From Candidatus Iainarchaeum sp. (GTDB lineage: Archaea > Iainarchaeota > Iainarchaeia > Iainarchaeales > UBA10191), in NCBI GenBank assembly GCA_030649735.1, contig JAUSFL010000004.1, forward strand, positions 1 through 30,946: a stretch of DNA of 30,946 nt, written 5' to 3'. Each line of letters opens with the position of its first letter. Within the stretch, counting starts at the first letter, position 1. Both the position numbers and the translations under genes were made by a program. The notes beneath the pieces are model-generated. The model was not told where the DNA came from. It saw nothing but the letters and a program-made list of their open reading frames with translations, and did not search any database. This document shows positions 11,575-30,946 of the stretch, one piece after another.

Positions 11575-12288
11575 ATGCGCGACAGCAATCCTTCAGTTTC
11601 TTTGGTAATGCCTGCCTATAATGAAGAGCAGCGCATAATGAAAGTAATGCCAAACTATTACAGTTTTTTGAAAAATAATTTTTCTGATTTTGAATTCATT
11701 ATTGTATGCAATAATTGCTCTGACAAAACCCCTGAGATTGTTGAAAAATTCAGCAGGAAAGACAAGCGGATAATTTTCATGAACATTCCGAGAAAAATTG
11801 GAAAGGGCGGCGCAGTCATTGAAGGATTCAAAAAGGCATCCAAGGACTTGATTGGATTCACTGATGCTGATTCTTCCACTTCCCCGGAGCAATTTTGCAA
11901 GTTGCTTGCCCCGATTGTTGAAAAGAATTTTGACGCCGCTGTCGCCTCAAGGGCCTTGAAAGAATCAATTGTTCCAAAAAAATCAATTGTAAGGGTAATT
12001 TTGGGAAGGTTTTTCAGCGTGCTTGTGAAAGTCTTGTTTGGCCTGAAAATCAATGACACGCAGTGCGGCGCAAAGCTTTTCAGGAAAAAGCCTTTGAAGG
12101 GCATTCTTTCCTCATTGAAAATCACTGGCTGGGAATTCGATGTTGAAGTATTGTGGAAGTTGAGCAAGAACGGCTTTTCAATTGCCGAGGTTCCAATAAC
12201 CTGGTCTGATGCTGCCGGCACAAAGCTCAACCCGGTTTCTGATTCGTTCAGGATGTTTGCCGGACTTTTGAAATTGAGGTTTTCTTGA
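11575..12288 (+). CDS. GT2 polyprenol (dolichol)-phosphate glycosyltransferase, DPG-synthase/AglJ-like
   Basis: VMPAYNEE, GKGGAV, FTDADSS, ASR, DTQCGAKLF, GWEFDVEVL, EVPITW. ATG 11575 chosen from TATA spacing; the ORF track start is 11539. Confidence 0.9.
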   Translation: MRDSNPSVSLVMPAYNEEQRIMKVMPNYYSFLKNNFSDFEFIIVCNNCSDKTPEIVEKFSRKDKRIIFMNIPRKIGKGGAVIEGFKKASKDLIGFTDADSSTSPEQFCKLLAPIVEKNFDAAVASRALKESIVPKKSIVRVILGRFFSVLVKVLFGLKINDTQCGAKLFRKKPLKGILSSLKITGWEFDVEVLWKLSKNGFSIAEVPITWSDAAGTKLNPVSDSFRMFAGLLKLRFS

Positions 12289-13251
12289 ATGGCAAAATTG
12301 AAAATAATTGTTGCCTTGATTGGAATTGCCGTTTTTGCATGGATTATTTCAAGCATTGATGTTTCAAAGCTTCTTTCAATAATTTCAAAGGCAAATTTCT
12401 TGCTTTTGGGCTTGGCCTTGATTATAGTGTTTTTCACAGTTCTTTTGAAAGGCCTGAAGTGGGGCTTGCTTTTGCGCCCTTTTGAAAAAAGGCTTGCTGT
12501 TTTGGACAATTCGCGGATTTTTTTGATTGGTTTTTTCCTGAGCGTTTTGACTCCGGGAAGGATTGGCGATTTGGCGAGGGCATTGTATTTGAAGGACAGG
12601 ATGAAGTTTGGCCAGGCATTGTCCACAGTGATTCTTGACAGGCTTGTAGACCTTACAGTATTGTTCTTTTCCGGAATTCTTGCGGCAATCGCTTTTTCAA
12701 TGGTTTTCAAGCAGCAGGTCATTTCTCTGCCTTTGGCAGTGATTTTCATCGCATTCTTTGCGCTGGCGCTGTTTTTGGTTTCAAGGCAAAAGCTAATGCG
12801 TTTTATTCTGCGGCCTTTCTTCAATCTTTTCATTCCGGCATCGCTCAAGCCAAAGGCTTCTGAAAGCTTTGCTTCATTCTTTGAGGCCTTGCGTATTTTT
12901 GCAAAAAAGCCGTTTACTTTGCTTGCTGTTTTCTTGCTGAGCATTGCTGCAATTTTTCTTTCAAGCATTGCCTTTTGGCTTATTGCATTGTCTTTGGGGT
13001 TGAAAACTGGATTTGCGCTGGCTTTGATTGCTGTTCCAATAATTGCGTTGGCTGACTTGCTTCCAATCACGGTTTCAGGGATTGGCGCAAGAGAGCTTCT
13101 TTTGATTTTCATGTTTTCTTTTGCCGGCGTTAGCGCGGAGAGCGCTGTTGCTGTTTCAATAGTTTATTTCATCATTGGATACATTAGTGTTGCTTTGGCC
13201 GGCTTTGCTTTTTTCCTGAAAGAGCCTGTGAAATTGAATTTTTCAGCTTAA
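12289..13251 (+). CDS. UPF0104/LPG-synthase-TM flippase-like membrane protein
   Basis: Polytopic; LTPGRIGDLARA, LDRLVD, LPITVSGIGARE motifs; abuts the GT2 stop. Confidence 0.9.
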   Translation: MAKLKIIVALIGIAVFAWIISSIDVSKLLSIISKANFLLLGLALIIVFFTVLLKGLKWGLLLRPFEKRLAVLDNSRIFLIGFFLSVLTPGRIGDLARALYLKDRMKFGQALSTVILDRLVDLTVLFFSGILAAIAFSMVFKQQVISLPLAVIFIAFFALALFLVSRQKLMRFILRPFFNLFIPASLKPKASESFASFFEALRIFAKKPFTLLAVFLLSIAAIFLSSIAFWLIALSLGLKTGFALALIAVPIIALADLLPITVSGIGARELLLIFMFSFAGVSAESAVAVSIVYFIIGYISVALAGFAFFLKEPVKLNFSA

Positions 13252-14604
13252 GCCGATTATCATCCTTAATCCTTTAAGGTTTTTGAAAAAGTCCTGCGGG
13301 CTCCTGATTTTTGAGATTCTTTTCAGCACGTAAGCCGGCCTGATGTAGAATTTTTTGAATGCCTTTTTTTGCATTTTCACGACTTCTTCGGCATTCTTGT
13401 AGCCGAACGGGACAAAAACAGGCTGCCATTCGTTATAGTTTTCAAAGTTTTCGTCAAGCTTTCCGAACTTTGAGGCTGTTTTGTACAATTCAGTTCCTGG
13501 AAAAGGCGTTGTTATTGAGAACTGCGCGTAATCAGGGTCCAGCTCGATTGCAAAATTTATTGTTTTCTCGGCGAGTTCTGGAGTTTCCCCGGGCAGTCCA
13601 ATCATGAAGCTTCCGCGGATTTCAATTCCCGCCTCTTTTGTGAGCTTGACTGCTTTTCGCACGTCTTCAAGCTTTATTCCCTTGTTGATGTTGTCCAAAA
13701 GCGTTTGGTCGCCTGCTTCAATTCCGTAAAAAATGTTCCAGCAGCCTGCCTTTTTCATTAATTCCAGCAATTCCTTGTCGACTAATTGAACGCGGGTTTC
13801 GCAGCTCCAGGGAAAATCAATCTTTTCTTCAATCATTTTTTCACAAAGCTTTTTCACCCACTCGCGCTTGATTGTGAAAATGTCGTCCCAGAATGCAATT
13901 TCTTGAATGCCGTATTTTTCTTTCAGTTCTTTCAATTCTGCAATCACGTTCTCTGCGCTTCTTACGCGGTATCTTCTTGTGCCTTCAGTCTTGCAGCAGA
14001 AAGTGCAGTTGAAAGGGCAGCCCCTTGAAGCCAGGACATTTAAGACGCGCGGGTTTTTTTTGTAATTGTTTGGAAGCGCGGAGTACTTGCTCAAGTCCAG
14101 CAAGTGCCTTGCAGGCATTGGCAGTTCATCCAGGTTTTCAATCAATTCTCCCTTGATTATGCTGTGCCTTTTGAGTTTTTTCAGTTCTTTCGCAATTTTT
14201 ACAATTGCTTTTTCTCCCTCGCCAGTTATCACAAAGTCGGCATTTGTCAGTTTTAGGGTTTGTTCTGGAAGCAGGCTTGCGTGCGGGCCTCCAATCACTA
14301 GGTAAACTTTCGGGAATTTTTCCCTGATTTTTTTGGAAAGCTCTGCGGTTCTTGAAATTGTCGGGGTCAAGGCGCTTATTCCGACAAAATCCGGCCTGAA
14401 TTTCTTAATCTCTTCAAGAACGTCCTTGACTTCAAGCTGTTGCGCGGGCATGTCAAGTATTTTGCATTCAATGCCTTGCTTTTCAAGCATTGCGGCAAGA
14501 TAGCAAAGCCCTAAGGGCGGCAAGTGGCCGCCTATTTCCCCGACGCTTTTCTTGCCGTACCTTTCGTCAAGGCTTATTGCTGGAAAAACCAAAAGCGCTT
14601 TCAA
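13243..14604 (-). CDS. Cobalamin-binding radical SAM protein (no. 1)
   Basis: PPLGLCYLAA and IGGPHAS in the B12 domain; SRGCPFNCTFC; WDDIF; YGIEAG; GLPGET; TPFPGT; GGGTGA RBS. Confidence 0.93.
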   Translation of the reverse strand: MKALLVFPAISLDERYGKKSVGEIGGHLPPLGLCYLAAMLEKQGIECKILDMPAQQLEVKDVLEEIKKFRPDFVGISALTPTISRTAELSKKIREKFPKVYLVIGGPHASLLPEQTLKLTNADFVITGEGEKAIVKIAKELKKLKRHSIIKGELIENLDELPMPARHLLDLSKYSALPNNYKKNPRVLNVLASRGCPFNCTFCCKTEGTRRYRVRSAENVIAELKELKEKYGIQEIAFWDDIFTIKREWVKKLCEKMIEEKIDFPWSCETRVQLVDKELLELMKKAGCWNIFYGIEAGDQTLLDNINKGIKLEDVRKAVKLTKEAGIEIRGSFMIGLPGETPELAEKTINFAIELDPDYAQFSITTPFPGTELYKTASKFGKLDENFENYNEWQPVFVPFGYKNAEEVVKMQKKAFKKFYIRPAYVLKRISKIRSPQDFFKNLKGLRMIIGLS

Positions 14605-14605
14605 T

Positions 14606-15376
14606 TCATTTCACCCTTGCTGCCTTTACCATCATTCCAACGCTTGTTTTTGAATTCTTGAAAAGCAGTTCATCAACTTTCAGGATTGCCTTTACAATTC
14701 CTTCAAGGATTTTGGGCGGCTTTTCCTTGCTTCCAATGAATTCTTTTTTTGCCTGCCTGTTTTTCGGGTCGCTTTTGAACAATGGCTGCAGTATTGTGGA
14801 AAGGTAATTTTCGCACAGTCCTGCAAAATAATGGTTCAAGAACTTGGCTTCTTGGATTTTGAAGCCGTTCTTTTCAAGCAGTTCTTTCAATTCTTCAAAA
14901 GAAAAAATTCTTTCGTGGCCAAAGCCGTAAATTCCAATTCCAATGTGCTTTCCAAAAACTTTTTCAAGCAAATAATTTATTGGATCGTAAGTGAATGGAA
15001 AATTCCTGTTCGGCGTTGAAATAACGAGCACTCCGCCTTTTTTGAGGCTTTTGCGCGCTTGCTGCAGCATTTTTTCAGGCTTTTCCAAGTGCTCTATCAC
15101 TTCAATGCTTAATGCCTTGTCAAACTTTGCATTGAACGGGATTTTGTAAGCGCTTGCCTTAATGAATCGAGAATTCCTCAAATTCCTGCTTTTTGCTTTC
15201 TTCAAGTCCTGCTCATTCAAGTCCATGCCTGTTATTTTCTCAAATTTTTCCTGCAGTTCTTCCTCAAATACTCCGTCAGAGCAGCCAATGTCAAGCAGGT
15301 TTTTTCCAGTCCCGATTAGCCTGACCGCTGTCCTAAAGCGGTTGTAATAGCTTGGCGCAAGCATTTTCAAACTCAT
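14606..15376 (-). CDS. Class I SAM-dependent methyltransferase
   Basis: LLDIGCSDG motif I, FD, EVIEHL, LKKGGVLVISTPN. Confidence 0.9.
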   Translation of the reverse strand: MSLKMLAPSYYNRFRTAVRLIGTGKNLLDIGCSDGVFEEELQEKFEKITGMDLNEQDLKKAKSRNLRNSRFIKASAYKIPFNAKFDKALSIEVIEHLEKPEKMLQQARKSLKKGGVLVISTPNRNFPFTYDPINYLLEKVFGKHIGIGIYGFGHERIFSFEELKELLEKNGFKIQEAKFLNHYFAGLCENYLSTILQPLFKSDPKNRQAKKEFIGSKEKPPKILEGIVKAILKVDELLFKNSKTSVGMMVKAARVK

Positions 15377-15385
15377 GTTTTTTCC

Positions 15386-16948: not shown

Positions 16949-17054
16949 ATTCACCAAAAAGCTAAATAATTACTACAGCAGCATTTTAAATGATTAGCGT
17001 GCTTTTTTTCTTTTGAGCATTTGCCTATAATCAAGATTTAATGGTATTTTTAAT

Positions 17055-18572
17055 ATGTCTGAAAAGCTTTATTCTGCAACAGCCCGCGGTGCAATCTATA
17101 ATTATTCTTCAACAGTTCTTGTCACTTTGCTGCAGTTTTTGACTTCAATCGTTTTTATCAAAATGCTTTCTGTATTTGATTATGGAGTCTACAACATTAT
17201 AATCGGCGGTGTTGGAGTTTTGGGGCTTGTTTTTCCGGTTGCAACAATAATGCGTTTTCTTCCGGAATATGCCCAGAAAGGCAATACTTTGCTTGCAAAA
17301 AAGCTTGTGAAAACTTTCTTGTTCTATTCTTTAATAATTCTTGGAATTTTTGCATTAAGCGTTTTTCTTTTCTCCATTTCTTCATTTTCGAATGGCTTGC
17401 TAAAGCTGGGAATAACTAAGGAGTTCGTCTGGTTTTTCATTTTAATCTCGGTCTTGACTGTAATTTCTGGAATAATTGACACTGTATTAATTGCATTGAT
17501 TGACCAGAAATTCAGGAGCTTTATTCGGGTTTTGTATTCTTCATTGGTTTTTTTGCTGTCCTTGATTTTGCTTTCCTTTGGCTTTGCGCTGGTTGGGGTT
17601 TTTGCGGTCGCGCTTGCCTCCGCGGCAGTATTGCTTTCATTGTCTGCCTGGCGTTTGCAGAATCTGATTTTTTCAAGGCCTTTGCAAGGCGGGGGGAAGC
17701 TGGAGTCCAAGCGGCTGCTTGACTATTCCCTTTTCAGTTCGTTGAATTATTTTGGCGACATTGTTCTTGGATTGACAATTGACATTTGGGTAATTGGATT
17801 GTTTTTGGGCGCTTATCAGGCTGGATTGTACGCATTTGCCGCCAAGACAGCCCAGACTCTCATTGCCTTATCGCCGGCGGCAATTGCAACTATTGTTGTA
17901 TACCCGATGCTGATAAAAAAATACACTGAAACAGGAAGCAAGGAACATCTTGTTTATTTTTTCGGGCTTTACAGCAAGTTCATTGCCTTTTTTGTTTTTC
18001 CAATGATTATTGGAGTCGTTGTTTTTGCAGACCCAATAATAAGGTTTGTTTTCAACCCAGAGTATGTTTTGGTGACTGGAATTTTCATGATTTCGGCAAT
18101 TGGATTTGGCTTTTCGGCGTTCCGCTCCGCAACCCTTGCGGTTTACAGCACTTTGGAACGGCTGGATATTGGATTTAAGGCAAAGCTTTTTTTCATTTAC
18201 AACTTGGCTGCTGATTTGATTTTGGTTCCATTGTACGGCTTGACTGGGGCAATTTTTGCAACAACCACTGCCACTTTTTTTGTTTTTTTGACAGAATTCC
18301 TGCTTACAAGAAAGCTTGTTAATATTTCATTCCCAAAAATGGCTTTTTTAAGAATTCTTGCAAATTCTGCATTGATGGGCCTTATTGTTTTTTTGATTTT
18401 GCCTTTTGTTAAAAGCACTTTGACATTGGGCATTGCAGCCCTTGCTGGCATTGGATCATACTTTGCGCTTTCTTTCATTAACAGGCCTTTCAGCGAGAGG
18501 GATTCAGGTTTTTTTGAGAAACTTGGGTTTTTGGGAAAGTTCTTTTCCTTTTTCTCAAGAAAGAACCACTAA
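17055..18572 (+). CDS. MOP-superfamily oligosaccharide flippase (Wzx/AglR-like) no. 1
   Basis: 505-aa polytopic protein; LSVFDYGVY, AGLYAFA, LVPLYGLTGAIFAT. Confidence 0.88.
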   Translation: MSEKLYSATARGAIYNYSSTVLVTLLQFLTSIVFIKMLSVFDYGVYNIIIGGVGVLGLVFPVATIMRFLPEYAQKGNTLLAKKLVKTFLFYSLIILGIFALSVFLFSISSFSNGLLKLGITKEFVWFFILISVLTVISGIIDTVLIALIDQKFRSFIRVLYSSLVFLLSLILLSFGFALVGVFAVALASAAVLLSLSAWRLQNLIFSRPLQGGGKLESKRLLDYSLFSSLNYFGDIVLGLTIDIWVIGLFLGAYQAGLYAFAAKTAQTLIALSPAAIATIVVYPMLIKKYTETGSKEHLVYFFGLYSKFIAFFVFPMIIGVVVFADPIIRFVFNPEYVLVTGIFMISAIGFGFSAFRSATLAVYSTLERLDIGFKAKLFFIYNLAADLILVPLYGLTGAIFATTTATFFVFLTEFLLTRKLVNISFPKMAFLRILANSALMGLIVFLILPFVKSTLTLGIAALAGIGSYFALSFINRPFSERDSGFFEKLGFLGKFFSFFSRKNH

Positions 18573-18629
18573 TGGTTTTTAATTCAATTATGGAATTATA
18601 TTAAGAAAAGCAGGGCGGGGTTTTTTGTT

Positions 18630-19910
18630 TTGAAAAAAGTTTCAATAATTGGTTTGGGGTATGTTGGCTTGCCTTTGGCCTGCCTTGCGGCAAAAAAAGG
18701 CCATGCTGTTTTTGGCATTGACTTGAGCAAGGAAATTGTGGAAAAAACAAACAAGGGAGAAAGCCATATTTTGGACGAGGGTTTGAAAAAAAGCGTTTTT
18801 GAAGCCAAAGGAAAAATTCATGCAACGACCAATGCTTCGGAAGTTTTGAAAGACTCTGAAGTGATTGTGGTTTGTGTTCCAACCCCTGTTGACAAAAAAT
18901 GCCTTCCAGACTTGGGTCCTGTTAAGGCGGCTTGCGAAGATATTGCAAAAAGCCTGAAGAAAGGCCAAGTTGTGATTGTTGAGTCAACAATTTATCCCGG
19001 AACTATTCAGGAAGTTGTCCACCCAATTCTTGAAAAGTCTGGGTTGAAGGCAGGAAAGGACTTTTATCTCGCGCATTGCCCGGAACGCATTGATCCAGGC
19101 AACAAAAAATGGGCTGTTGAGAAAATTCCGCGCGTGGTTGGAGGAATTAACGAGAAAAGCACCCAATTGGCCGCCGAGTTTTACGAAAGCATTTTGGACG
19201 CGAAAGTAAAGCGCTTGAATTCAGTGAAGGCTGCAGAGGCAGTCAAAATCATGGAAAACACTTTCCGAGACATCAACATTGCGTTCGTGAATGAAATGGC
19301 AAGGTCTTTTGATGTTTTGGGAATTGACATCAAGGAAGTGATTGAAGGCGCTTCCTCAAAGCCTTTTGGATTCATGCCTTTCTATCCAGGCCCTGGAGTT
19401 GGAGGTCACTGCATTGCAGTGGACCCTTATTACTTGATAGAGCGGGCGAGGCAAAGCGGCTTTGACCACAAATTCCTGCGATTGGCGCGGGAAATCAACG
19501 AGTCAATGCCTTCCTATGTTATTCAATTGGCTTCTGAAGGATTGAATCATTCTGGAAAAAGCCTGAATGGAAGCAAGGTTTGCGTTTTGGGAATTGCCTA
19601 CAAGCCAAACGTTGATGATTCTAGGGAAAGCCCTTCATTCCCTATTATAGAATTATTGCAGGAAAGAAAGGCAGTATTGAAAATTTTTGACCCTTTGGCT
19701 GTTGAATTGAACAATTCAAAAAGCATTGAAGACGCAGTGAAGGACTCTGACTGCGTGATTATTGCAACAAACCATGAAGAATTTTTGGAAAAAATCACTC
19801 CGGAATTCTTGAAAAAGAACAAAGTGCCTTTCATTCTAGACTGCAGGAATTCCTTCAAAAAGCAGGATTTTGAAAAGGCTGGAATTCTTTACAAGGGCGT
19901 CGGAAGCTGA
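18630..19910 (+). CDS. UDP-N-acetylhexosamine 6-dehydrogenase (WbpA/WecC family)
   Basis: GLGYVGLP, CVPTP, ESTIYPGT, PERIDPG, KIMENTFRDINIA, GVGGHCIAVDP, AYKPNVDDSRESP. Confidence 0.93.
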   Translation: MKKVSIIGLGYVGLPLACLAAKKGHAVFGIDLSKEIVEKTNKGESHILDEGLKKSVFEAKGKIHATTNASEVLKDSEVIVVCVPTPVDKKCLPDLGPVKAACEDIAKSLKKGQVVIVESTIYPGTIQEVVHPILEKSGLKAGKDFYLAHCPERIDPGNKKWAVEKIPRVVGGINEKSTQLAAEFYESILDAKVKRLNSVKAAEAVKIMENTFRDINIAFVNEMARSFDVLGIDIKEVIEGASSKPFGFMPFYPGPGVGGHCIAVDPYYLIERARQSGFDHKFLRLAREINESMPSYVIQLASEGLNHSGKSLNGSKVCVLGIAYKPNVDDSRESPSFPIIELLQERKAVLKIFDPLAVELNNSKSIEDAVKDSDCVIIATNHEEFLEKITPEFLKKNKVPFILDCRNSFKKQDFEKAGILYKGVGS

Positions 19911-19912
19911 AT

Positions 19913-21547
19913 TCAAGGGCAATTGTTTCGTTTGTTCGCAAAAAGCATGAATGCAGTGTCTTTTCCGGACTTTAATTCTTCGCAAAGCCTGAATTCTTTT
20001 GCGTCAAGGCCCAGTTTGTCCGGAGTTTTTGAGGATATCAAAAAGTCAATTTCTTCAGCTGAGTGCTTTTTGTTGTCTGTTAAAATAAGGCTTTTTTTCA
20101 GTTCGAACTCTTTCTGCCTTTCAGGGTCTGGAGGAAAAAACTTTTTGAAGAAAGGATTGTTAACTTCAGTGTCAAGCGCGTAAATTCCCAGGTAATATTC
20201 TGGAAGGTCTGTTCCGATGCTGCTGTAAACTGTTTTTCCTTCAGGAATTTTTTGCACTGCCTGCGAGAATCCCTTGAAGTCGTGCTGTTGAATTACAATC
20301 GCTGATTGCACTGCAAAAGCTGCCAAAAACAATGCGGCAACAATCCAGAAGTGCTTGTGCTTGCTTAATTCTGCCAGCGCAAATGCCGAAATTGCAAGCA
20401 TTGGGAATTCAATTTCTGCCAGGTAGTTTGTCCTTTGAATGCTCAGGATTGCCGAAAAATAAATTAGGAAAACCAAGAAAAGCAGGAGGATTGCCAGTTG
20501 GGCGGAATTTCTTCTTTTCAGGATTAAAAACGCGCCGCCCAATGTAAAGACAAGCAGCAATGGAGTGTAAAACAGCCCGGCAAGATTTAAGTAAAATAAA
20601 TTGCTTGGCGTTCTTGCAGTTCCTCCAATGCTGTCGGCAATGAAAGAACTATAATGCACTTGCTCGCTCAAGTCATTGACTTGGCTTCCGTATTTTTGAA
20701 TGTAAGCTTGTGTTATTCCTGAATTTCCAACAATCACAGGCAAGTTGTAGGCTATTGCAAACAGGATTAATGCTGAACAAACCAGCGCTTCTTTCCTGCA
20801 TTCTTTTGAAAGAATCTCTTTTCTCCAGGTCCATGCAAGAATTGCAAAGGCTGGAATGAACGCAAAAACTGTTTCCCTTGTTGAAAGCCCCAAGGCCAAA
20901 GCCAGTCCGGCCAATGGAAGGAGCTTTTTTTGCCTTGTGCTTTCCGCAAGCAATGCAAGCGAAAGCGCGCCAAGGAACATTCCTAAGGAATCCCTGAATG
21001 AGGAAGCGCTTATGAAAATCCCGAACGGCGAAAGCATCAGCAGGGCGAATGCAATGATTCCTGTCCTTTCGTCAAAGACTTTCCTGCAAATGAAAAAAGC
21101 GCAAACCGCAATCCCTAAAGTCGAGAATGTTGAAATCAATTCTCCGGTAATGTTTGGCTTCAGGCCTGTCAGTGCAATTCCAAAAGACTGAAGGATAAGG
21201 AAAAACTCCGGCGCGTAAAAAAGGTACGGGATTTTGAAGGCGAATTTTGCCAGCAAAAAGCCCGCAAGCAGTATTGCAGTGATTTTCCAGTTTTTTTTCA
21301 CAAAGGCAAAGTATGAAAAAACAGCAATTGCCAGCAATGCTGGAATCACTGCCAGAATGTTGGAAAGCAAAGTGTGCGCGATTTTGAACGCGAACATTCC
21401 ATAAAATGCCTCGTCTCCAGTAATGTCAGTGCGGTTTATGAAAGCCAGCCTTAACAATAATCCAAGGACTGCAATTCCTAACAGAATCAGTAAAGTGTTC
21501 TTTTTCTGAAATTCAAAAGCTTTTTCCAGCATGCTATTGTCATTCAT
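19913..21547 (-). CDS. GT-C fold (ArnT/PMT_2-like) membrane glycosyltransferase
   Basis: GLLLRL followed by the DEAFY acidic motif after TM1, many TM helices, LSPF...D, and a soluble C-terminal domain. Confidence 0.8.
   Translation of the reverse strand: MNDNSMLEKAFEFQKKNTLLILLGIAVLGLLLRLAFINRTDITGDEAFYGMFAFKIAHTLLSNILAVIPALLAIAVFSYFAFVKKNWKITAILLAGFLLAKFAFKIPYLFYAPEFFLILQSFGIALTGLKPNITGELISTFSTLGIAVCAFFICRKVFDERTGIIAFALLMLSPFGIFISASSFRDSLGMFLGALSLALLAESTRQKKLLPLAGLALALGLSTRETVFAFIPAFAILAWTWRKEILSKECRKEALVCSALILFAIAYNLPVIVGNSGITQAYIQKYGSQVNDLSEQVHYSSFIADSIGGTARTPSNLFYLNLAGLFYTPLLLVFTLGGAFLILKRRNSAQLAILLLFLVFLIYFSAILSIQRTNYLAEIEFPMLAISAFALAELSKHKHFWIVAALFLAAFAVQSAIVIQQHDFKGFSQAVQKIPEGKTVYSSIGTDLPEYYLGIYALDTEVNNPFFKKFFPPDPERQKEFELKKSLILTDNKKHSAEEIDFLISSKTPDKLGLDAKEFRLCEELKSGKDTAFMLFANKRNNCP
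21230..21394. repeat. 15-bp imperfect direct repeat, copies 150 bp apart, inside the GT-C gene
   Basis: GATTTTGAAGGCGAA (21230-21244) and GATTTTGAACGCGAA (21380-21394), 14/15 identical, both encoding FAFKI. Confidence 0.6.
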
Positions 21548-21617
21548 GTACCAAACTCATTTAAATAATTTAAGACAGCCATTAATTGCGAATGACTGGC
21601 AAAATGGGGTTTTTCAA

Positions 21618-22580
21618 TTGAACATTCTGGTGACTGGCGGCTGTGGCTTTATTGCAAGCAATTTCATCAGGAAAGAGCTTTCAGAAAACTCTGAGAACAC
21701 AATTACTAACCTGGATTCCTTGACTTATGCAGGCAATCCCTCAAACTGCAAAGACTTTGAAGAAAACCCGCGCTATTCTTTCATCAAGGCAGACATTAAT
21801 GAAATCAATAGATTGAAAGTCCGGAAAGACTTTGACTGGATTGTGAACTTTGCCGCAGAAACCCATGTTGACAACAGCATTTCAGGCCCTGACGCTTTTG
21901 TAAAAACAAACATTAATGGAGCCCTCGAGCTTTTGAAATTCTGCAGGCAGAATGACATTAATTTCTTTCAAATATCAACTGACGAAGTTTACGGCAGCAT
22001 TGAAAAAGGCGCTTTCAAAGAAAGCGATGTTTTTTTGCCTAACTCTCCGTACTCTGCCTCAAAAGCCGCTGCTGAAATGCTCGTTCGGGCTTACCAAAAA
22101 ACTTACGGCTTGAAAACATTGGTTTCACGCAGTTCAAACAATTACGGGCCTTTCCAGCATCCTGAAAAGCTCATTCCATTGTTTATCACTAATCTTTTGG
22201 AAGGAAAGAAAGTCCCAGTTTACGGCAGTGGCTTGAATGTCAGGGACTGGGTTTTTGTGGAAGACAATTCCAAAATGCTAAGCATAATGCTGAATTCCGG
22301 AAAAACAAACGAGTCTTACAATATTGGCGGCTTGAACGAGCGCTCTAATTTGGAAATCACGCGAATGCTTTTGAAAGGATTGGGAAAGGACGAAAAGTCC
22401 ATTGAGCATGTTGAAGACCGCAAAGGGCATGACTTCAGGTATGCATTGGACTGCAAAAAATTCGAGAAAGACTTTGGAAAATTCAAGCGCGCTGAATTCC
22501 AAAAAGGCCTGCAGCTTACTATTGACTGGTACAAGAACAATGCTTCCTGGTGGAAGCCATTGAAGCAAAAAAAGGAGTGA
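21618..22580 (+). CDS. rfbB: dTDP-glucose 4,6-dehydratase
   Basis: ILVTGGCGFIA, LTYAGN, FAAETHVDNSI, STDEVYG, YSASK, DRKGHDFRYA. TTG 21618 after GGGGT preferred; the ORF track start 21531 overlaps the divergent gene. Confidence 0.95.
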   Translation: MNILVTGGCGFIASNFIRKELSENSENTITNLDSLTYAGNPSNCKDFEENPRYSFIKADINEINRLKVRKDFDWIVNFAAETHVDNSISGPDAFVKTNINGALELLKFCRQNDINFFQISTDEVYGSIEKGAFKESDVFLPNSPYSASKAAAEMLVRAYQKTYGLKTLVSRSSNNYGPFQHPEKLIPLFITNLLEGKKVPVYGSGLNVRDWVFVEDNSKMLSIMLNSGKTNESYNIGGLNERSNLEITRMLLKGLGKDEKSIEHVEDRKGHDFRYALDCKKFEKDFGKFKRAEFQKGLQLTIDWYKNNASWWKPLKQKKE

Positions 22581-22586
22581 TTTTTT

Positions 22587-23333
22587 TTGAAGGGCGTGAT
22601 TCTAGCAGGCGGAAAAGGAACAAGGCTTTTGCCTTTGACATTGGCCACAAACAAGCACTTGCTTCCAGTCTATGACAAGCCCATGATTTTCTATCCCTTG
22701 CAGACCTTGAAGGATGCTGGAATCAAGGACGTTTTGATAATCATTGACCCCGAAAATGCCGGCGCTTTCCTTCGGATTTTGGGAAGCGGCCTTGAGTTTG
22801 GAGTAAACTTGACTTTCAGGATTCAGGACAGCCATGTTGGCTTTGGAATTGCAGGGGCCTTAAGCCTTGCTGAAGACTTCTGCAAAAACGACTGCCTTGC
22901 AGTGATTTTGGGCGACAATATTTTTGAAGACTCTTTCAAGAGCGCGATTGCAGATTTTGAAAAAAAGCGCAATGGATCCTGTGTTTTCCTGAAAAAAGTT
23001 CCAGACCCTTCAAGGTTTGGAGTTGCGGAATTGAATGGCGAAAAAGTCGTTTCAATCGAGGAAAAGCCAAAAAAGCCAAAGTCAGACTTTGCAGTCACTG
23101 GCTTTTACATTTATGACAATAATGTTTTTGACTTGATTAAAAAAATAAAGCCAAGCGGCCGCGGAGAGCTTGAAATCACTGACGTGAACAAGGCATACCT
23201 TGCGAATGGATCCCTTGCGGCAAAAATAGTCAGCGGGTTCTGGAGCGATGCCGGAACAATCCCTTCATTGCAGAACGCGTCAGAGCTTGTCAAAGGCAAT
23301 GCAATAAAAAACAAAGCCTGCTCTTCCTGTTAA
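22587..23333 (+). CDS. rfbA: Glucose-1-phosphate thymidylyltransferase (short, SpsI-like)
   Basis: ILAGGKGTRLLPLT, NKHLLPVYDKPMI, LGDNIF, EEKP, RGELEITD, WSDAGT; GGAGTGA RBS. Confidence 0.92.
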   Translation: MKGVILAGGKGTRLLPLTLATNKHLLPVYDKPMIFYPLQTLKDAGIKDVLIIIDPENAGAFLRILGSGLEFGVNLTFRIQDSHVGFGIAGALSLAEDFCKNDCLAVILGDNIFEDSFKSAIADFEKKRNGSCVFLKKVPDPSRFGVAELNGEKVVSIEEKPKKPKSDFAVTGFYIYDNNVFDLIKKIKPSGRGELEITDVNKAYLANGSLAAKIVSGFWSDAGTIPSLQNASELVKGNAIKNKACSSC

Positions 23334-23360
23334 GGGATTTAAGAAAAAAGTTGTTTGAAA

Positions 23361-24794
23361 ATGGCTGACTCTATAGTTAAAGGAAGCTTTTACCTGACTC
23401 TTGCCACTGCATTCTATCTTGCGGCAAACTATGTTGTTTACTTTTTGCTTTCGCGTTCTTTCACTCCGGCAGAGTTTGGAGTTTACGGGATTGTAACAAC
23501 ATTGGTTTCAACTGTTGGAATGCTTTTGGCATCTTCAATAGAGCCTGCGGCTTCAAAATTTGCTTCAGAAACCAACGCAAGCGTTGGCAAAGTCTCCCGC
23601 GCTGTCTTTTCATTGACCCTCAAAATCTCTTTCGCGCTTTTCGCGGTTGTTTTCCTGCTGGCTGATTTCATAGCATTGGCTTTTAATGATTCTTCACTCG
23701 CAACTCCAATCCGATTGGCTTCATTGTTCATTGTTTTCGCGCCATTGTTCAGTTCAGGAACAGGATTGCTTTCAGGCACCAGGCATTTTCTCAAGCAATC
23801 AGCTTCAATAACTGCTTACTCAATAATCCGGGTGCTTTTAATAATTGGTTTTGTATTGCTTGGCTTTTCAGTGCTTGGAGCTCTTGCTGGAGTAGTGCTT
23901 TCAGTAATGGCGATTTCAGTGATAGTTTGGCTTTTGAACAAGCCTGCTTTTGAAAAAGCCGGCACTTCACAATTGCAAAAGCGCGTTCTTCCATTCCTGC
24001 TTCCATTAATGCTTTTGGCTCTTTTAACCAATTTTTTAACAAACTTTGACTTGTTTGCTGTCAAGGCGTTAAGCGCTCCTGGAGTCTCAAGCATTAACGC
24101 CGGGTTTTACGCTGCTGCTTCTTTGCTTTCAAAAATTCCCTTGCTGCTGATTTCTGCAGTTTCAATAGTAGTGATTCCAGTAATTTCCAGGCAAGGCTTT
24201 GCGCGCTTGGAAAACACCCAGAAAATAATCCGCACTACAATGCGTTATTCACTGATGATTCTTGCCCCAATTGTCCTGGCCCTTGCTTTCACTTCGCAAG
24301 AAGTGATACAATTGTTTTATTCGGCAAAATTCCTTCCTGCAGCAGAGCCTTTCACGATTCTCGTGCTGGGCATTGGGCTTTTCAGCCTGGCAACAGTCGC
24401 TTTCAACATTATGATCGCTTTAGGCAGGCCTAAAATTCCGACAATAATAACTCTTTTTTCCTTGATTATCGCAGTCGCTTTAAGCATTGCATTAGTTCCA
24501 TTGATTTCAATGCGCGGCGCTGCCATTGCAACAGCAGTTGCAGGCGCTTTTGCTTTTGCTTGTGCGGCTTTTTACCTGATTTTCAGGCTTAAGGCCTTAA
24601 TGTCCTGGATTTCCCTTGCCAGAATCGCGATAGCCGCGTGCTTGACTGCTTTTGCTTTAGGCTTTTGGCAGGTTGGCGGATTGCTTCTGGTTTTAAAGTA
24701 TTTGGCATTCCTTATTTTGTATTGTTTTTTATTGGTTGCACTTAAAGAGTTCAAAAAAGAAGATTGGAATTTCTTTCTGGGAATAGTGAAGTGA
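23361..24794 (+). CDS. MOP-superfamily oligosaccharide flippase (Wzx/AglR-like) no. 2
   Basis: Polytopic; PAEFGVY, AGFYAAA, LVPLISMRGAAIAT. Start is ATG 23361 or TTG 23355. Confidence 0.88.
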   Translation: MADSIVKGSFYLTLATAFYLAANYVVYFLLSRSFTPAEFGVYGIVTTLVSTVGMLLASSIEPAASKFASETNASVGKVSRAVFSLTLKISFALFAVVFLLADFIALAFNDSSLATPIRLASLFIVFAPLFSSGTGLLSGTRHFLKQSASITAYSIIRVLLIIGFVLLGFSVLGALAGVVLSVMAISVIVWLLNKPAFEKAGTSQLQKRVLPFLLPLMLLALLTNFLTNFDLFAVKALSAPGVSSINAGFYAAASLLSKIPLLLISAVSIVVIPVISRQGFARLENTQKIIRTTMRYSLMILAPIVLALAFTSQEVIQLFYSAKFLPAAEPFTILVLGIGLFSLATVAFNIMIALGRPKIPTIITLFSLIIAVALSIALVPLISMRGAAIATAVAGAFAFACAAFYLIFRLKALMSWISLARIAIAACLTAFALGFWQVGGLLLVLKYLAFLILYCFLLVALKEFKKEDWNFFLGIVK

Positions 24795-27688: not shown

Positions 27689-27702
27689 TTGGAGTTTCTT
27701 TT

Positions 27703-28431
27703 ATGAAAAGCGAACAACAACAATGGAATGACTGGTTTAAGCACATTTCAAAAGCCAAAAAGAAAACATTGAATGAAGAATTAAATTGTTTCCGGGAGAT
27801 ATTTTCCTTCATTCCAAAAATCAAGGGAAAAAGAATCCTTGACATTGGCTGTGGTTTGGGGGAAGTCTTGATCGAATGCAGCTCTTTGGGCGCAAGGCAG
27901 GCTGTTGGAATAGACTCTGTGGAAAACGTTGTAAAAGCGGCTAGAAAGAATGCAAAGTCTGCCGGGTTTGCAAAAATAATTAAAGTAGTCAAGGGCGACG
28001 CTTTGAAAATGCCTTTCAAGGGCGAAAGCTTTGACATTGTCTTCTCTTTAGGGCTTTTGGAGCATTTTGAAAACCCGCAGGGATTGCTTTTGGAAAAAAA
28101 GCGCGTTTTGAAAAAAGGCGGTTTTGTCGTTGCAGTAGTCCCTAACTTTTTGAGCATTCCAAGGCATTCTTTCGGGATTGCCCGCAGGCTTTTGAGGCCT
28201 GAAAGCGTTATTCCAGAAAAGCCAATCACTTCCTTTTATTTAAAAAAAGAATTCAAGAAAGCCGGCCTGAAAAACTTTAAAATCAAAGGACTGTATTATT
28301 TTCCGTACACTGCAATTTCCGGAAAAGAAATCAGGCCATTAAGCAAGGCTTTGCAAGTTTTCAATTCATTGAATACAATGCCTGGCTTGAAGCATTTTGC
28401 GTGGTTTTTGGTTGCAATTGCCGAAAAGTGA
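27703..28431 (+). CDS. Class I SAM-dependent methyltransferase (Methyltransf_11-like)
   Basis: ILDIGCGLG, GDALKMPF...SFD, GLLEHF, LKKGG. ATG 27703 follows GGAG; the ORF track start 27535 overlaps the upstream gene. Confidence 0.9.
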   Translation: MKSEQQQWNDWFKHISKAKKKTLNEELNCFREIFSFIPKIKGKRILDIGCGLGEVLIECSSLGARQAVGIDSVENVVKAARKNAKSAGFAKIIKVVKGDALKMPFKGESFDIVFSLGLLEHFENPQGLLLEKKRVLKKGGFVVAVVPNFLSIPRHSFGIARRLLRPESVIPEKPITSFYLKKEFKKAGLKNFKIKGLYYFPYTAISGKEIRPLSKALQVFNSLNTMPGLKHFAWFLVAIAEK

Positions 28432-28541
28432 TTATTTTACTGACGATTGTACCAATTTTTTTGGGAGTTTTTTTAAAGCAATTGGAGTTTCAATACTAAA
28501 AAACACGTTGTTTTTATAGGACTTTTCTGGAGGAATTTATA

Positions 28542-29753
28542 TTGCAGAGCACTATTCCAAGGCTTAAAATGGAAGCCGGTTTTTTTGACGCTTTAAGGTC
28601 TTTGATTCCATTTCCTTCCAACGCAAAGCAGAAATTCCGCAAATTATTGGCCGACTATTTTGGAATTGATGATGAAAAAATTCTCCTGATTGGCAGCGGC
28701 AGGCAGGCATTGTATTTTTTGTTCAAAAGCCTTCCTGATTATGAAACCGTGATAATGCCCGCGTTCACTTGCAGGCTTGTGGGCGATGCAGCATACATGG
28801 CTGGAAAGAAAGTAAAGTTTGTTGATGTTTCACTCGATGATTATAACCTGGTTCCAGAGCTTTTGGAAAAGCGCATTGTAAAGCATTCAATAGTTGTAGT
28901 GACAAACCAGTTTGGAATTCCTTCACAAACCAGGGAGATTAAAAGAATCTGCGAAAAGCACGATTGCCTTTTGATTGAAGACATGGCTGAGGCTTTTGGC
29001 ACTGAAATTGGCGGAAAGAAAGTCGGAACTTTTGGCGATGCCGCAATCCTGAGCTTTTCAGTCTCTAAAACAATAAGCACTGCAAGGGGCGGGGCAATTT
29101 TCTTGAACAATCCAAAACCATGGTCTGGAAAGCTTGAAAAAGTCATTAATGCCGAAATGAATCCAGAAGGCCTGGTCAGGGCATTGAAGCATTGCTTTAC
29201 CGCAGGCACTTACAATTTTTTCGCCAATGGAATAGTTTACGGAAACATTATCCTTCCATTATGGATCAGAAGGCACGGCTTGTACACTGACAAGGGAATT
29301 TACACTACAAAAAAGAATTCATTCTACACTGACAATTACACTCAAATGCAGGCAAGGCTTGGATTGATAGTCTTTTCAAGGCTTGACAGCATAATAAAAA
29401 GAAGGCAGTCAATTGCAAAGCGCTACATTAGAGAGCTTTCAGGCATCAAAACATTGGGGTTTCCAAAGCTTTCTGAAGGCTCGGTTCTAAGCAGGTTTCC
29501 AATTTTAATCCGTAATGAAAACAAGACAGAATTTTACTTTAGGGCATTGCAGAAAAACATTGACTTGGGCTTTACTTTCTCATATTCAATGTCGCGCGAT
29601 AAAAAGAACGACCCGAATGCTGAATTTATAGGGCAACAAATATTAAATTTGCCAATAACCACTAAAATTAGCGATGCTGAAGTTGATTATGTCATAAAAT
29701 CCATAAAGGAAGTGGCAAAAGGGGCAGACAAGCCGCCCCAGCTGCTTTTTTAA
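28542..29753 (+). CDS. DegT/DnrJ/EryC1/StrS family PLP-dependent sugar aminotransferase
   Basis: SGRQAL, MPAFTC, NQFGIP, IEDMAEAFG, SFSVSKT (PLP lysine), GGA, LNLP. Confidence 0.88.
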   Translation: MQSTIPRLKMEAGFFDALRSLIPFPSNAKQKFRKLLADYFGIDDEKILLIGSGRQALYFLFKSLPDYETVIMPAFTCRLVGDAAYMAGKKVKFVDVSLDDYNLVPELLEKRIVKHSIVVVTNQFGIPSQTREIKRICEKHDCLLIEDMAEAFGTEIGGKKVGTFGDAAILSFSVSKTISTARGGAIFLNNPKPWSGKLEKVINAEMNPEGLVRALKHCFTAGTYNFFANGIVYGNIILPLWIRRHGLYTDKGIYTTKKNSFYTDNYTQMQARLGLIVFSRLDSIIKRRQSIAKRYIRELSGIKTLGFPKLSEGSVLSRFPILIRNENKTEFYFRALQKNIDLGFTFSYSMSRDKKNDPNAEFIGQQILNLPITTKISDAEVDYVIKSIKEVAKGADKPPQLLF

Positions 29754-29818
29754 GCATTAAACAGGCTGTTTTTTAAAACTCTATAATTTAAGTTATAAAA
29801 AGGAAAAGGTTTTCTGAA

Positions 29819-30946
29819 TTGAATGTTTTGTTCATTTACCCTAATTTGACTGGCCAATTGCAGACGCCATTGGGAATCACAAGCTTGTCTGCTGTTTTGA
29901 AGAGTGCCGGGCATGAGACAATGCTTTTTGACACCACTTGGGGTTATGACAAGGAAGGGCTTTTCAGGGCAATCAAGGAATTCAAGCCAAAACTCATTTG
30001 CTTTTCAACCAGGAACAGCGATTACAAGTTTTCCTTAAGCATTGCGCAAGAATTGAAAAAAAATTTCAAGACCCCGATAATTTTTGGAGGGCCGCATGCA
30101 ACATTAAATCCTGAAAAACTAATTATGGAAGACTGCATTGACTTTGTCAATGTTGGCGAAGGCGACGAATCACTTCCAGAGCTTGTGCAAAAGCTAGAGG
30201 AAATGAAAGGCACTTCAAAAATAAGGAACGTTTGGGCAAAAAAGAACGGCAAGGTCTTCCAGAATCAAGTAAGGCCATTACTGCAAAACCTGGATGAACT
30301 GCCATTCCCTGACTTGGACATTCTTGACAAAAAGCACTTGGGGTTTGAAATATTGTTCATGACTTCCCGCGGATGCCCTTACCACTGCACGTATTGCGCA
30401 AACCATGCTTTCCAGAAAGTTTTTGCCGGAAAAGGCCGTTATATCCGCTACAAAAGCCCGCGTTATGTCATTGAAGAAATAAAAGCAGCCCAAAAGAAAA
30501 TAGGCATGAAATCATTGACTTTTGTTGACGAAATGTTCACTGTCGACAAAAAACGCGTCAAAGAAATTTGCCGGCTTTACAAGAAAGAAATTGGCCTTCC
30601 TTTCATGATTGAAACCCGCGCTGACGGCGTTGACAAGGAACTGCTCAAGGTCTTGAAGGATTCAGGCTGCGATACAATTGCAATGGGAATAGAGCACGGA
30701 AACGAGTACATTCGCGGTCAAATAATGAAAAGAAACATGAAGCGCGAAGCCATAACCCAAGCATTCAAAATGGCTAAAGAAGTTGGCTTGAAAACATATG
30801 CAATGAACATGGTTGGCTTGCCTTTTGAGACAGAAAAGACAATCTTTGAAACAATTGAGTTAAACCGGCAGTGCAGGCCTGACGCAATCCAAGTAAGCAT
30901 TTTTTCTCCGTATGAAGGCACTGAATTGCATGAAATGTGCGCGAAA
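29819..30946 (+). CDS. Cobalamin-binding radical SAM protein (no. 5), truncated by the window end and absent from the ORF track
   Basis: Manual translation from TTG 29819: MNVLFIYPNLTGQLQTPLGITSLSAVLK...IFGGPHAT...GEGDE...TSRGCPYHCTYC...FVDEMF...GIEHG...GLPFET...SPYEGT; open to the end. Confidence 0.92.
   Translation, partial: MNVLFIYPNLTGQLQTPLGITSLSAVLKSAGHETMLFDTTWGYDKEGLFRAIKEFKPKLICFSTRNSDYKFSLSIAQELKKNFKTPIIFGGPHATLNPEKLIMEDCIDFVNVGEGDESLPELVQKLEEMKGTSKIRNVWAKKNGKVFQNQVRPLLQNLDELPFPDLDILDKKHLGFEILFMTSRGCPYHCTYCANHAFQKVFAGKGRYIRYKSPRYVIEEIKAAQKKIGMKSLTFVDEMFTVDKKRVKEICRLYKKEIGLPFMIETRADGVDKELLKVLKDSGCDTIAMGIEHGNEYIRGQIMKRNMKREAITQAFKMAKEVGLKTYAMNMVGLPFETEKTIFETIELNRQCRPDAIQVSIFSPYEGTELHEMCAK

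Follow-up and report, generated by a model that had tools for sequence, protein, structure and literature searches.

A predicted AglB-linked glycosylation island of an archaeon, with partly conserved B12-type radical SAM enzymes as a probable main component of glycan tailoring

The window analysed here, a stretch of 30,946 nucleotides that makes up the entire contig C6 (JAUSFL010000004.1) of the Candidatus Iainarchaeum sp. assembly GCA_030649735.1 (the source genome, G000), contains between 11.5 and 30.9 kb a locus of 16 genes. Five of these (r1–r5) encode B12-type radical S-adenosylmethionine (SAM) enzymes, in which a B12-binding domain (PF02310) is fused to a radical SAM domain (PF04055), and the 11 others include two glycosyltransferase genes. 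We conclude that enzymes of this type, of which the genome encodes ten and some of which are conserved throughout much of an archaeal order, are probably a main component of the tailoring machinery of a glycosylation island. On the reading that we favour, the window is one arm of this large, assembly-fragmented, AglB-linked surface-glycosylation island, and the ten enzymes would be soluble, cytoplasmic tailoring enzymes of activated sugars, a role to which we give somewhat better than even credence.

All ten PF02310 matches in the genome (1.28 Mb in 51 contigs, 92.7% complete) are radical SAM fusions situated in glycosylation loci, namely r1–r5 in the window, r6–r9 within the final 17 kb of C46, a contig of 160 kb, and r10 on the 1664-bp contig C5 (L003:531-1664). 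In the window's five enzymes, PF02310 scores 63–105 bits against a cut-off of 32.1 and PF04055 scores 61–104 bits against 29.5, and exactly one CxxxCxxC motif occurs in each of the ten paralogues. The five genes that a first-pass annotation of this DNA had picked out by their B12-binding domain and CxxxCxxC motif are thus all present where it placed them, with both domains in each. Its tally of 16 genes, five of this type and two visible glycosyltransferases, also agrees, as do its gene types, with calls made from an open reading frame (ORF) list, Pfam scans and NCBIfam model scores compared with curated cut-offs. Its assignment of the DNA to the archaea is borne out by the archaeal small- and large-subunit ribosomal RNA models, which win the clan competition.

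An aglB-type N-glycosylation cluster holding such enzymes is present on C46, where r6–r9 lie downstream of AglB, AglH, Alg14 and Alg13. The order on this contig is a 1298-amino-acid (aa) surface protein, AglB (STT3), AglH (Glycos_transf_4), Alg14, Alg13, a SPASM radical SAM protein and a PHP protein, and then a co-directional series comprising four GT2 and four GT4-type (Glycos_transf_1) glycosyltransferases, two more SPASM radical SAM proteins, four methyltransferases, an epimerase, a GT-C glycosyltransferase and r6–r9. Class I methyltransferase genes flank the B12-type enzymes in both places (the METHYLTRANSFERASES link), in the arrangements r2-methyltransferase-r1 and r4-methyltransferase in the window, and r7, methyltransferase, r8, methyltransferase on C46. 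The remark of the first-pass annotation that only two glycosyltransferases are visible therefore holds for the window contig and not for the island, the rest of which contains at least four GT2, four GT4-type and one GT-C gene in addition to AglH, Alg13/14 and AglB; the low count in the window arises because the contig break fragments the island.

Three other features of C46 deserve mention. The 1298-aa protein (C46:120615-124511; L017:615-4511), encoded 9 kb upstream of aglB, is Ig/cadherin-like, with Big_9, cadherin-like and He_PIG domains, and as a surface glycoprotein it is a candidate substrate. Near the island there is also a distant eleventh relative, a radical SAM protein of 588 aa (C46:126231-127997; L017:6231-7997) that has no PF02310 match and scores weakly, at 136.8 bits, against a profile of the ten paralogues. 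Between a methyltransferase gene and r9 lies a gene (C46:156800-157243; L002:17801-18244) for a 147-aa protein with three hydrophobic windows. Neither Pfam nor NCBIfam matches this protein, and BLAST gave no homologue of it in the other archaeal loci, so that a GtrA-like flippase role, which was considered, is unsupported.

The association of the window with the aglB contig follows from gene order in relatives. In G028 the order is Ugd (60% identical), Wzx, the orthologues of r3 (63%) and r4 (69–70%), GT4, DegT, the orthologue of r9 (70%), an AglJ-like GT2 (62%) and GT-C, and the arrangement in G041 resembles it. A single contig of G023 carries Alg14/Alg13, RmlB-RmlA-r6, GT-C, GT2, r9, an r2-type enzyme, Wzx, a methyltransferase and Ugd. 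The modules of the window and of C46 thus stand side by side in three relatives, and the 3′ ends of C6 and C46 are therefore predicted to face each other, with C5 between them or nearby. Both r5 and r10 are cut by contig ends, and they are 72% identical, compared with 25–43% for other pairs (r2 and r7, 41%). In sequencing run X1, the contigs at the r5 end (30056-30946) are pieces of 90–591 bases, and the depth over 30806-30946 is 44.7, roughly threefold the value of about 15 found elsewhere. This fragmentation, the raised depth and the likeness of r5 to r10 indicate that the contig break at r5 probably results from a paralogous, collapsed repeat.

The family and its neighbourhood are conserved beyond this genome. 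With a profile of the ten paralogues (E ≤1e-20), 33 of 41 genomes from this order, G000 included, proved to contain the family, copy numbers running from 0 to 13; these genomes measure 0.5–1.5 Mb and represent more than 30 families. In a neighbourhood test, 20 loci from 18 relatives were set against 20 control regions, the latter drawn from 10 of these genomes, with ORFs labelled by BLASTP (E ≤1e-5) to the Pfam-annotated proteins of G000, so that all labels come from a single genome. Glycosylation labels fell on 129 of 355 non-B12 ORFs in the case loci compared with 3 of 442 in the controls, and B12-type radical SAM fusions were found in none of the 20 control regions. This absence, and the siting of all ten enzymes of G000 in glycosylation loci, go beyond what chance would give. 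The homologues are therefore strongly associated with glycosylation genes, as the first-pass annotation had expected. The immediate neighbours of 54 B12-type radical SAM genes in 30 other archaeal loci included GT2 genes (15), methyltransferases (14), further B12-type radical SAM genes (14) and RmlA-like genes (8), and the LPG_synthase_TM/TIGR00374 family adjoined such a gene in 3 of the 54 cases. As a separate observation, a LAGLIDADG-domain ORF (L039:5451-6383, in G019) is situated inside the Rml/glycosyltransferase cluster of a related complete genome.

Similar arrays also occur outside the order. A metagenome-assembled genome (MAG) of Candidatus Portnoybacteria, a bacterium of the candidate phyla radiation, carries five copies together with four GT4 genes and two methyltransferases (L008). 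Among IMG/VR contigs, 514 of 600 pattern matches were confirmed as relatives, so that at least 514 exist; in the best 80 loci (L087-L166), 25 contain at least two glycosylation-labelled ORFs (for example, B12-type radical SAM-RmlB-RmlA-GT4) and seven contain at least two copies. These relatives may be viral genes or mis-binned cellular islands. The array is thus not unique to this locus: such arrangements recur in relatives, in the candidate phyla radiation bacterium, in a Planctomycetia genome and on viral contigs. The locus itself appears in several metagenomes: 95% of sampled words from 23355-30946 were found in one sequencing run and 10–37% in six runs of three other studies, the organism field of these runs, where filled, reads “groundwater metagenome,” and contigs from three runs cover most of the locus at 90–99% identity. 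No RNA run was among those listed for 23355-30946, and the compared contigs, from four runs, are all DNA. Among the best 120 homologues of r6, 13 names give an organism, and nine of these read “Candidatus Diapherotrites archaeon.” A search for AmoA found no match, a result that is uninformative because it matched in no genome at all. The host is likely a small-genome groundwater archaeon of DPANN/Diapherotrites affiliation.

The sequences of the enzymes bear on their possible cofactor and their location. Cobalamin-binding motifs (a downstream G-x-S-x-L, G-G and G-E, as defined in PMC9204698 with the structures determined for OxsB, TsrM and TokK) were tentatively mapped to alignment columns by position. 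The alignment reads GISAL, GG and GEGE in r1 and G-x-[ST]-C-x, GG and GEGE in r2–r4, so that r1–r4 keep G-x-S/T-x-hydrophobic, GG and GEGE at the mapped positions; r5 reads CFSTR, GG and GEGD and keeps only the latter two of the canonical motifs. By contrast, r6 and r9 depart from these motifs in the same way as genuine HpnJ does. No transmembrane-like segment is found in the window's five enzymes, and among the paralogues only r7 has a hydrophobic window, a single one at its C-terminus. Because membrane segments are lacking, the enzymes are predicted to act in the cytoplasm, before flipping.

A model for the whole island is proposed here, in which the substrates, the type of reaction, the use of cobalamin and the final acceptor are inferred from findings at the gene level. 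RmlA, RmlB, DegT and the nucleoside diphosphate (NDP)-sugar dehydrogenase would provide nucleotide-activated 6-deoxy, amino and uronic sugars, with deoxythymidine diphosphate (dTDP)-6-deoxy and amino sugars coming from the first three and uronic acids from the dehydrogenase. Polyprenyl-phosphate sugars would be supplied by the AglJ/ArnC-like GT2 with the flippase-like proteins and GT-C, and the GT2 enzymes would attach sugars to dolichyl phosphate or to the lipid-linked glycan as it grows. Each B12-type paralogue would abstract a hydrogen at an unactivated carbon of one activated sugar. For the window's five, the next step would most likely be methyl transfer from methylcobalamin, resulting in C-methylation, and for r6 and r9 it is possibly a carbocycle-forming rearrangement of the HpnJ type. 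Methylation at O or N would fall to the class I methyltransferases encoded alongside, the Wzx and flippase-like proteins would flip the products, and the GT-C enzymes and AglB would transfer them onto surface proteins. The three gene types of polyprenyl-phosphate sugar glycosylation (GT2 synthase, flippase-like protein and GT-C) are all encoded in the window; the matches of the GT2 (11539-12288) to the AglJ (65.5 bits), ArnC-type (54 bits) and dolichyl-phosphate (Dol-P) hexose transferase (45 bits) models all lie below the NCBIfam cut-offs.

Several observations weigh against this reading. Four of the 17 single-hit case loci (L042, L043, L053 and L055) have two or fewer glycosylation-labelled neighbours; moreover, the related genomes are not independent of one another, and the case loci were picked around the enzymes. 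In 13 loci of named genomes (11 labelled bacterial and two archaeal), only 9 of 156 non-B12 ORFs carried a glycosylation label, a figure obtained by BLAST labelling with archaeal references, which is insensitive across domains. One of the bacterial loci, from a Planctomycetia MAG (L005), has five copies and four SPASM radical SAM genes without a labelled glycosylation gene. The linkage of the window to aglB rests on synteny in G023, G028 and G041, without a contiguous assembly. None of the ten paralogues reaches any curated NCBIfam cut-off, and therefore no function can be transferred to them by orthology. Among solved structures, AprD4 comes closest to r1 and r3 in sequence and to r6 in fold, and CysS comes closest to r2 in sequence. 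Finally, there is an apparent gap in cofactor supply: searches of the 92.7%-complete G000 recovered neither CobS nor CbiB, nor a FecCD/BtuC-type permease, nor NrdJ, and CobS, as well as FecCD above its cut-off, was found in 0 of the 41 genomes of the order, other importer types lying outside the search. The only PduO-type match is marginal (25 bits against a cut-off of 24) and is located inside an 813-aa open frame (C3:14489-14740, minus strand), and G000 encodes no B12-binding-domain protein outside the ten radical SAM enzymes. It follows that either the cobamide is taken up by an unrecognised route or some of the enzymes are cobamide-free. The term “cobalamin-dependent” is a prediction from a domain match.

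The last two of these observations also favour the most serious alternative, which is that the enzymes are cobalamin-independent and AprD4-like, carrying out dehydration, deoxygenation, epimerisation or oxidation of sugars, and that their “B12-binding” domain is a Rossmann-like relic. AprD4 is a radical SAM 1,2-diol dehydratase with a sugar substrate, paromamine (as given in the title of its PDB entry), and a 2026 review reports that AprD4 and ArsL fall in the same similarity network and yet do not bind cobalamin (PMC12931638). In a sequence search of solved structures, AprD4 ranked first for r1 (E 1.4e-33) and r3 (E 1.5e-23), followed by MgmA (1.8e-27 and 6.6e-21, respectively). An AlphaFold model of r6, built from a 48-sequence alignment (mean pLDDT 91.6), matched AprD4 best in the PDB (6fd2; TMq 0.74, TMt 0.80). 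However, the fold search ranks the cobalamin-dependent enzymes TsrM, OxsB, CysS, MgmA and TokK close behind (TMq 0.61–0.70), and the paralogues score only 33–143 bits against the AprD4 family model (NF033070), far below its cut-off of 500. In addition, the alignment to AprD4 is confined to the radical SAM core (phmmer; r1 residues 158-386), whereas the cobalamin-binding TokK and OxsB align into the N-terminal domain of r1 as well (residues 70-342 and 37-335, respectively), the domain that matches PF02310 with up to 105 bits. The window's enzymes r1–r4 also retain the GxSxL-, GG- and GE-type motifs, while AprD4 is reported not to bind the cofactor. We therefore regard the AprD4-like alternative as unlikely, while taking it seriously.

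A second alternative accepts the tailoring of sugars and changes its destination: the window arm would make a separate glycoconjugate, such as a Wzx-dependent exopolysaccharide, a GT-C O-glycan or a glycolipid head group, which the radical SAM enzymes would tailor. The window lacks aglB, lies on a contig other than that of aglB, and has its own two Wzx-type genes, its own pair of GT2 and flippase-like genes and its own PMT_2/ArnT-type GT-C, and islands whose product is unknown have been described in other archaea (bioRxiv 10.1101/2024.04.23.590705). Against this stands the synteny described above, in which G023 joins the homologous modules with Alg14 and Alg13 on one contig and the window-type module of G028 and G041 abuts the module found at the end of the aglB contig of G000, and orthologues of the window's RmlA and RmlB are located inside the aglB clusters of relatives. 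A product distinct from the AglB-linked glycan is thus quite improbable.

The ten paralogues are not equally distant from enzymes with a proposed function. In a maximum-likelihood tree of 53 sequences that included one genuine HpnJ (a cyanobacterial protein with 805.7 bits to TIGR03471), in which a careful run confirmed the quick tree, they resolve into old, distinct lineages. The r2/r7 clade has support of 100/100, r5 and r10 group together, and the partner of r1 is a protein from a MAG labelled Thaumarchaeota. Orthologues of r9 occur in four other genomes, and the r3-r4 pair is kept in G028. Fourteen genomes of the order each contribute a single member to the r6 clade, which in relatives typically stands in the block RmlB-RmlA-(methyltransferase)-r6-GT2-GT4, often beside AglB, AglH, Alg14 and Alg13. 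Genuine HpnJ is sister to this r6 clade (support 100/98), and the r9 clade comes next (93/78). The HpnJ model matches r6 and r9 end to end with 470.5 and 408.4 bits, respectively, below its cut-off of 577.6, in comparison with 256.5, 118.5, 160.7, 223.8 and 165.7 bits for r1 to r5. Furthermore, four motifs are common to r6 and HpnJ and absent from r1–r5: TST at the position of GxSxL, V/I-G at that of GG, RHE[YF]DY at that of GEGE, and C-x-W-P-Q-T following the cluster motif. The lead to HpnJ offered by the first-pass annotation was therefore apt for r6 and r9, which lie outside the window, rather than for the window's own enzymes. Taken as a whole, that earlier interpretation is partly supported. 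It stands in its archaeal assignment, its association with glycosylation and its HpnJ lead for r6 and r9, its two visible glycosyltransferases reflect the contig break, and the multiply C-methylated or ring-rearranged product that it proposed is hypothetical.

HpnJ has the same domain architecture as the window's enzymes. By genetics, it acts on a lipid-linked amino sugar installed by a GT2, and it is proposed to contract the glucosamine ring of bacteriohopanetetrol (BHT)-glucosamine to a cyclitol ether (PMC13459092; PMC9204698); it is described as never having been isolated (PMC13598231). Its context is the hopanoid pathway, and it is reported only in genomes with squalene-hopene cyclase (SHC) and HpnH (PMC12324291), whereas here the setting is AglB-linked glycosylation in an archaeon in which no SHC was detected (no SQHop_cyclase_C match in G000). 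A pairing of the HpnI-HpnJ type was rejected, as the GT2 genes flanking r6 have no HpnI match at E ≤1e-10. Bacterial proteins that are 55–57% identical to r6, from Desulfobacterales and Planctomycetota, likewise score 453–478 bits to the HpnJ model, from which r6 appears to belong to a widespread HpnJ-like family lying under the HpnJ cut-off; judged by sequence, the r6 family would be the closest non-hopanoid relative of HpnJ. In two proteins that are 61–62% identical to r6, P0056 (792 aa) and P0064 (823 aa), the r6-like part is joined to an FkbM-type methyltransferase domain at the C-terminus, and in a bacterial cluster of structural neighbours from the ESM Atlas, Methyltransf_11 is fused in 98% of members. 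These natural fusions suggest that the radical SAM enzyme and the methyltransferase act on the same substrate.

It is tempting to combine these lines into a single, bolder proposal, in which the core N-glycosylation of the order would use radical sugar chemistry: the conserved r6 and r9 would be HpnJ-like ring contractases acting on an amino sugar linked to dolichyl phosphate and yielding a carbocyclic cyclitol; C-methylation of unactivated sugar carbons would be the task of the variable paralogues, the window's five among them; and, since the order appears to lack both cobamide synthesis and a BtuC-type importer, cobamides would be obtained from a host or the community via an unrecognised route. 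This proposal is improbable. If it were true, the N-glycans would contain carbasugar and branched C-methyl units, which are unknown in any protein glycan.

The remaining alternatives concern substrates other than sugars. B12-type radical SAM enzymes are reported to cyclise and methylate archaeal lipids (bioRxiv 10.1101/2025.10.20.683597; PMC13459092), and the enzymes studied here could in principle modify isoprenoid lipids (dolichol, archaeol or tetraethers), as the archaeal ring synthases and methylases of glycerol dialkyl glycerol tetraethers do. Partial matches of 107–175 bits to the model named “lipid biosynthesis B12-binding/radical SAM protein” point in this direction, but they lie well below its cut-off of 360, the neighbouring genes are sugar-nucleotide and glycosyltransferase genes rather than lipid genes, and a copy number of 0–13 among relatives is what a flexible surface trait would be expected to show; a lipid substrate is accordingly very unlikely. 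Modification of a protein or peptide, for example of the side chains of surface proteins, by enzymes resembling Mmp10, MgmA or the C-methyltransferases of peptides that are made on ribosomes and modified after translation (RiPPs) is also hard to credit. The rank of MgmA behind AprD4 for r1 and r3, partial matches of 75–180 bits to the ApyD and RiPP C-methyltransferase models, and the surface protein gene near aglB are compatible with it, but these scores fall far below the cut-offs, no precursor-peptide or RiPP genes were seen, and it is Rml, GT2, GT4 and methyltransferase genes that are conserved as neighbours. Scores to BchE (TIGR02026) are likewise at most 218.8 bits against a cut-off of 481.35. 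Fom3 acts on nucleotide-activated substrates, of which the nucleotidyltransferase gene next to r6-type genes is reminiscent. Fom3/PhpK-like methylation of phosphonate or phosphinate groups on the glycan was rejected because the 92.7%-complete G000 has no PEP_mutase match, and the scores to the PhpK/Sden_1168 P-methyltransferase models (TIGR04479 and NF038361; at most 171 bits for r1–r5 and 173 for r9) are far under the cut-offs of 575–600, even though a published similarity network places HpnJ, Fom3 and MoeK5 in one cluster (PMC9204698).

The reading of r1–r10 as tailoring enzymes of activated sugars can be set beside known systems, with NCBIfam scores serving as a proxy for a phylogeny with GenK, GenD1, Fom3, HpnP, Cds, GrsA/B and BchE. 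Most class B radical SAM enzymes are described as methylases, several of them acting on sugars, and GenK, GenD1/GntE, Fms7 and MoeK5 are members that methylate unactivated sp3 carbons of sugars (PMC12931638; PMC9204698). Along with these sugar C-methylations, the ring contraction by OxsB, the one proposed for HpnJ and the formation of calditol by Cds are the nearest known chemistries (PMC12931638; PMC13459092; PMC9204698; PMC13598231). GenK, GenD1, Fms7 and MoeK5 work beside glycosyltransferases, aminotransferases and class I methyltransferases, an arrangement also seen in the window. By contrast, they belong to secondary-metabolite clusters of actinomycetes and not to a protein-glycosylation island, a comparison made by description only. 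The calditol synthase Cds of Sulfolobus is another archaeal radical SAM enzyme for which contraction of the ring of a lipid-linked glucose is proposed; its product, however, is a membrane-lipid head group of acidophiles, and the description of Cds in PMC13459092, on which this comparison relies, mentions no B12 domain. Flexible, strain-variable islands that are rich in glycosyltransferases and whose product is unknown are reported from marine ammonia-oxidising archaea (bioRxiv 10.1101/2024.04.23.590705), and here too copy number and content vary among relatives. Unlike those islands, the present one starts at aglB, and B12-type radical SAM enzymes are dominant and partly conserved in it; the word “radical” is absent from the text of that preprint.

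The genes of the locus are listed in Table 1.

Table 1. Predicted genes of the glycosylation locus in the window, with the domain or model matches on which the assignments are based.
Feature	Coordinates	Strand	Match
GT2 glycosyltransferase, polyprenyl-phosphate sugar synthase type	11539..12288	+	Pfam Glycos_transf_2 85.4 bits
Flippase-like membrane protein, LPG_synthase_TM/TIGR00374	12289..13251	+	Pfam 160.8 bits; TIGR00374 115.2 bits, above the 43.2 cut-off
r1, B12-binding + radical SAM, 453 aa	13243..14604	-	PF02310 105.3 bits; PF04055 104.2 bits
Class I SAM methyltransferase, one base upstream of r1	14606..15376	-	Methyltransf_23/11 82 and 67 bits
r2, B12-binding + radical SAM, 523 aa	15386..16957	-	PF02310 64.9 bits; PF04055 61.1 bits; CPHKCTYC
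Wzx-like polysaccharide biosynthesis membrane protein (weak match)	17055..18572	+	Polysacc_synt_3 30.9 bits; Polysacc_synt 23.9 bits, below the 28.2 cut-off
NDP-sugar dehydrogenase (Ugd)	18630..19910	+	TIGR03026 457 bits, above the 189.8 cut-off
GT-C fold glycosyltransferase, PMT_2, ArnT/PMT-like	19913..21547	-	PF13231 34.2 bits; 34% orthologue in G041
dTDP-glucose 4,6-dehydratase RmlB	21531..22580	+	TIGR01181 421 bits, above the 365.1 cut-off
Sugar-1-phosphate nucleotidylyltransferase, RmlA-like	22587..23333	+	NTP_transferase 201 bits; rmlA model 267 bits, below the 360.65 cut-off
Wzx-type flippase	23355..24794	+	Polysacc_synt 79.5 bits; Polysacc_synt_3 78.9 bits
r3, B12-binding + radical SAM, 506 aa	24795..26315	+	PF04055 86.1 bits; PF02310 69.1 bits; CPFACQFC
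r4, B12-binding + radical SAM, 458 aa	26312..27688	+	PF02310 99.3 bits; PF04055 95.6 bits; CPFNCTYC
Class I SAM methyltransferase	27703..28431	+	Methyltransf_11 85.7 bits, domain from residue 102 of the long form
DegT/DnrJ/EryC1-type sugar aminotransferase	28542..29753	+	PF01041 154.2 bits; PseC, WecE and DesI models below cut-off
r5, B12-binding + radical SAM, 376 aa seen, cut by the contig end	29819..30946	+	PF04055 101.8 bits; PF02310 63.1 bits; CPYHCTYC

Several of these genes have counterparts in relatives beyond those already described. The GT2 has a 56% identical orthologue in G028, and orthologues of the dehydrogenase (58–60%) adjoin wzx and B12-type radical SAM genes in G028, G041 and G023. 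Orthologues of RmlB (50–54%) lie beside the r6-type enzyme in relatives, and r4 has orthologues of 69–70% identity in G028 and 60% in G041. The cluster motif of r1 is CPFNCTFC at residue 196, and its nearest named record, at 57% identity, is labelled “Thaumarchaeota archaeon.” The best NCBIfam model for r3 is BchE, at 207.6 bits against a cut-off of 481, and no NCBIfam model is above cut-off for the methyltransferase at 14606-15376. The stop codon (TGA) of the second wzx gene directly abuts the ATG of r3 at 24795, and r3 and r4 share a four-base overlap. The methyltransferase that follows r4 probably starts at the ATG at 27703, 15 bases past the r4 stop, rather than at the GTG at 27535 chosen by the ORF tool. 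A 484-aa ORF (11658-13112, minus strand) runs antisense to the GT2 and flippase-like genes; as it overlaps them and has no Pfam match, it is probably spurious. No RNA family of Rfam reached its gathering score in the window.

The first part of the window (bases 1-11476) is of a housekeeping nature, with genes for VTT, LemA and M48 peptidase proteins, asd, lysC, dapA and dapB, an AlaX-like protein, a pterin dehydratase, a PNP/UDP-family phosphorylase (probably MTAP), an HD protein and a phosphoribosyltransferase. The diaminopimelate-pathway run of asd, lysC, dapA and dapB occupies 3117-7231, with a separate ACT-domain protein at 7301-7975, and represents a notable biosynthetic capacity for the 1.28-Mb genome of an archaeon that is probably of DPANN type.

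A literature search found no paper that links B12-type radical SAM enzymes to archaeal N-glycosylation and none that combines aglB, radical SAM and N-glycosylation, supplementary gene tables lying outside its reach; in the main text of a glycoproteomics paper on Nitrososphaerota, the words “methyl,” “radical” and “B12” are absent. As far as that search extends, then, archaeal protein glycosylation has no step assigned to a B12-type radical SAM enzyme. Here, about 10 genes of a 1.28-Mb genome encode such enzymes, and one type has been kept next to aglB in many families of the order. The apparent gap in cobamide supply is order-wide and would mean either that these domains do not bind cobalamin or that ultra-small archaea rely on partners for a cofactor that serves surface tailoring alone. 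The enzymes form a sequence-diverse set of candidates for new C-H functionalisation of sugars, with obvious substrates encoded in adjacent genes, and the r6 family may be a more tractable route to the chemistry of HpnJ.

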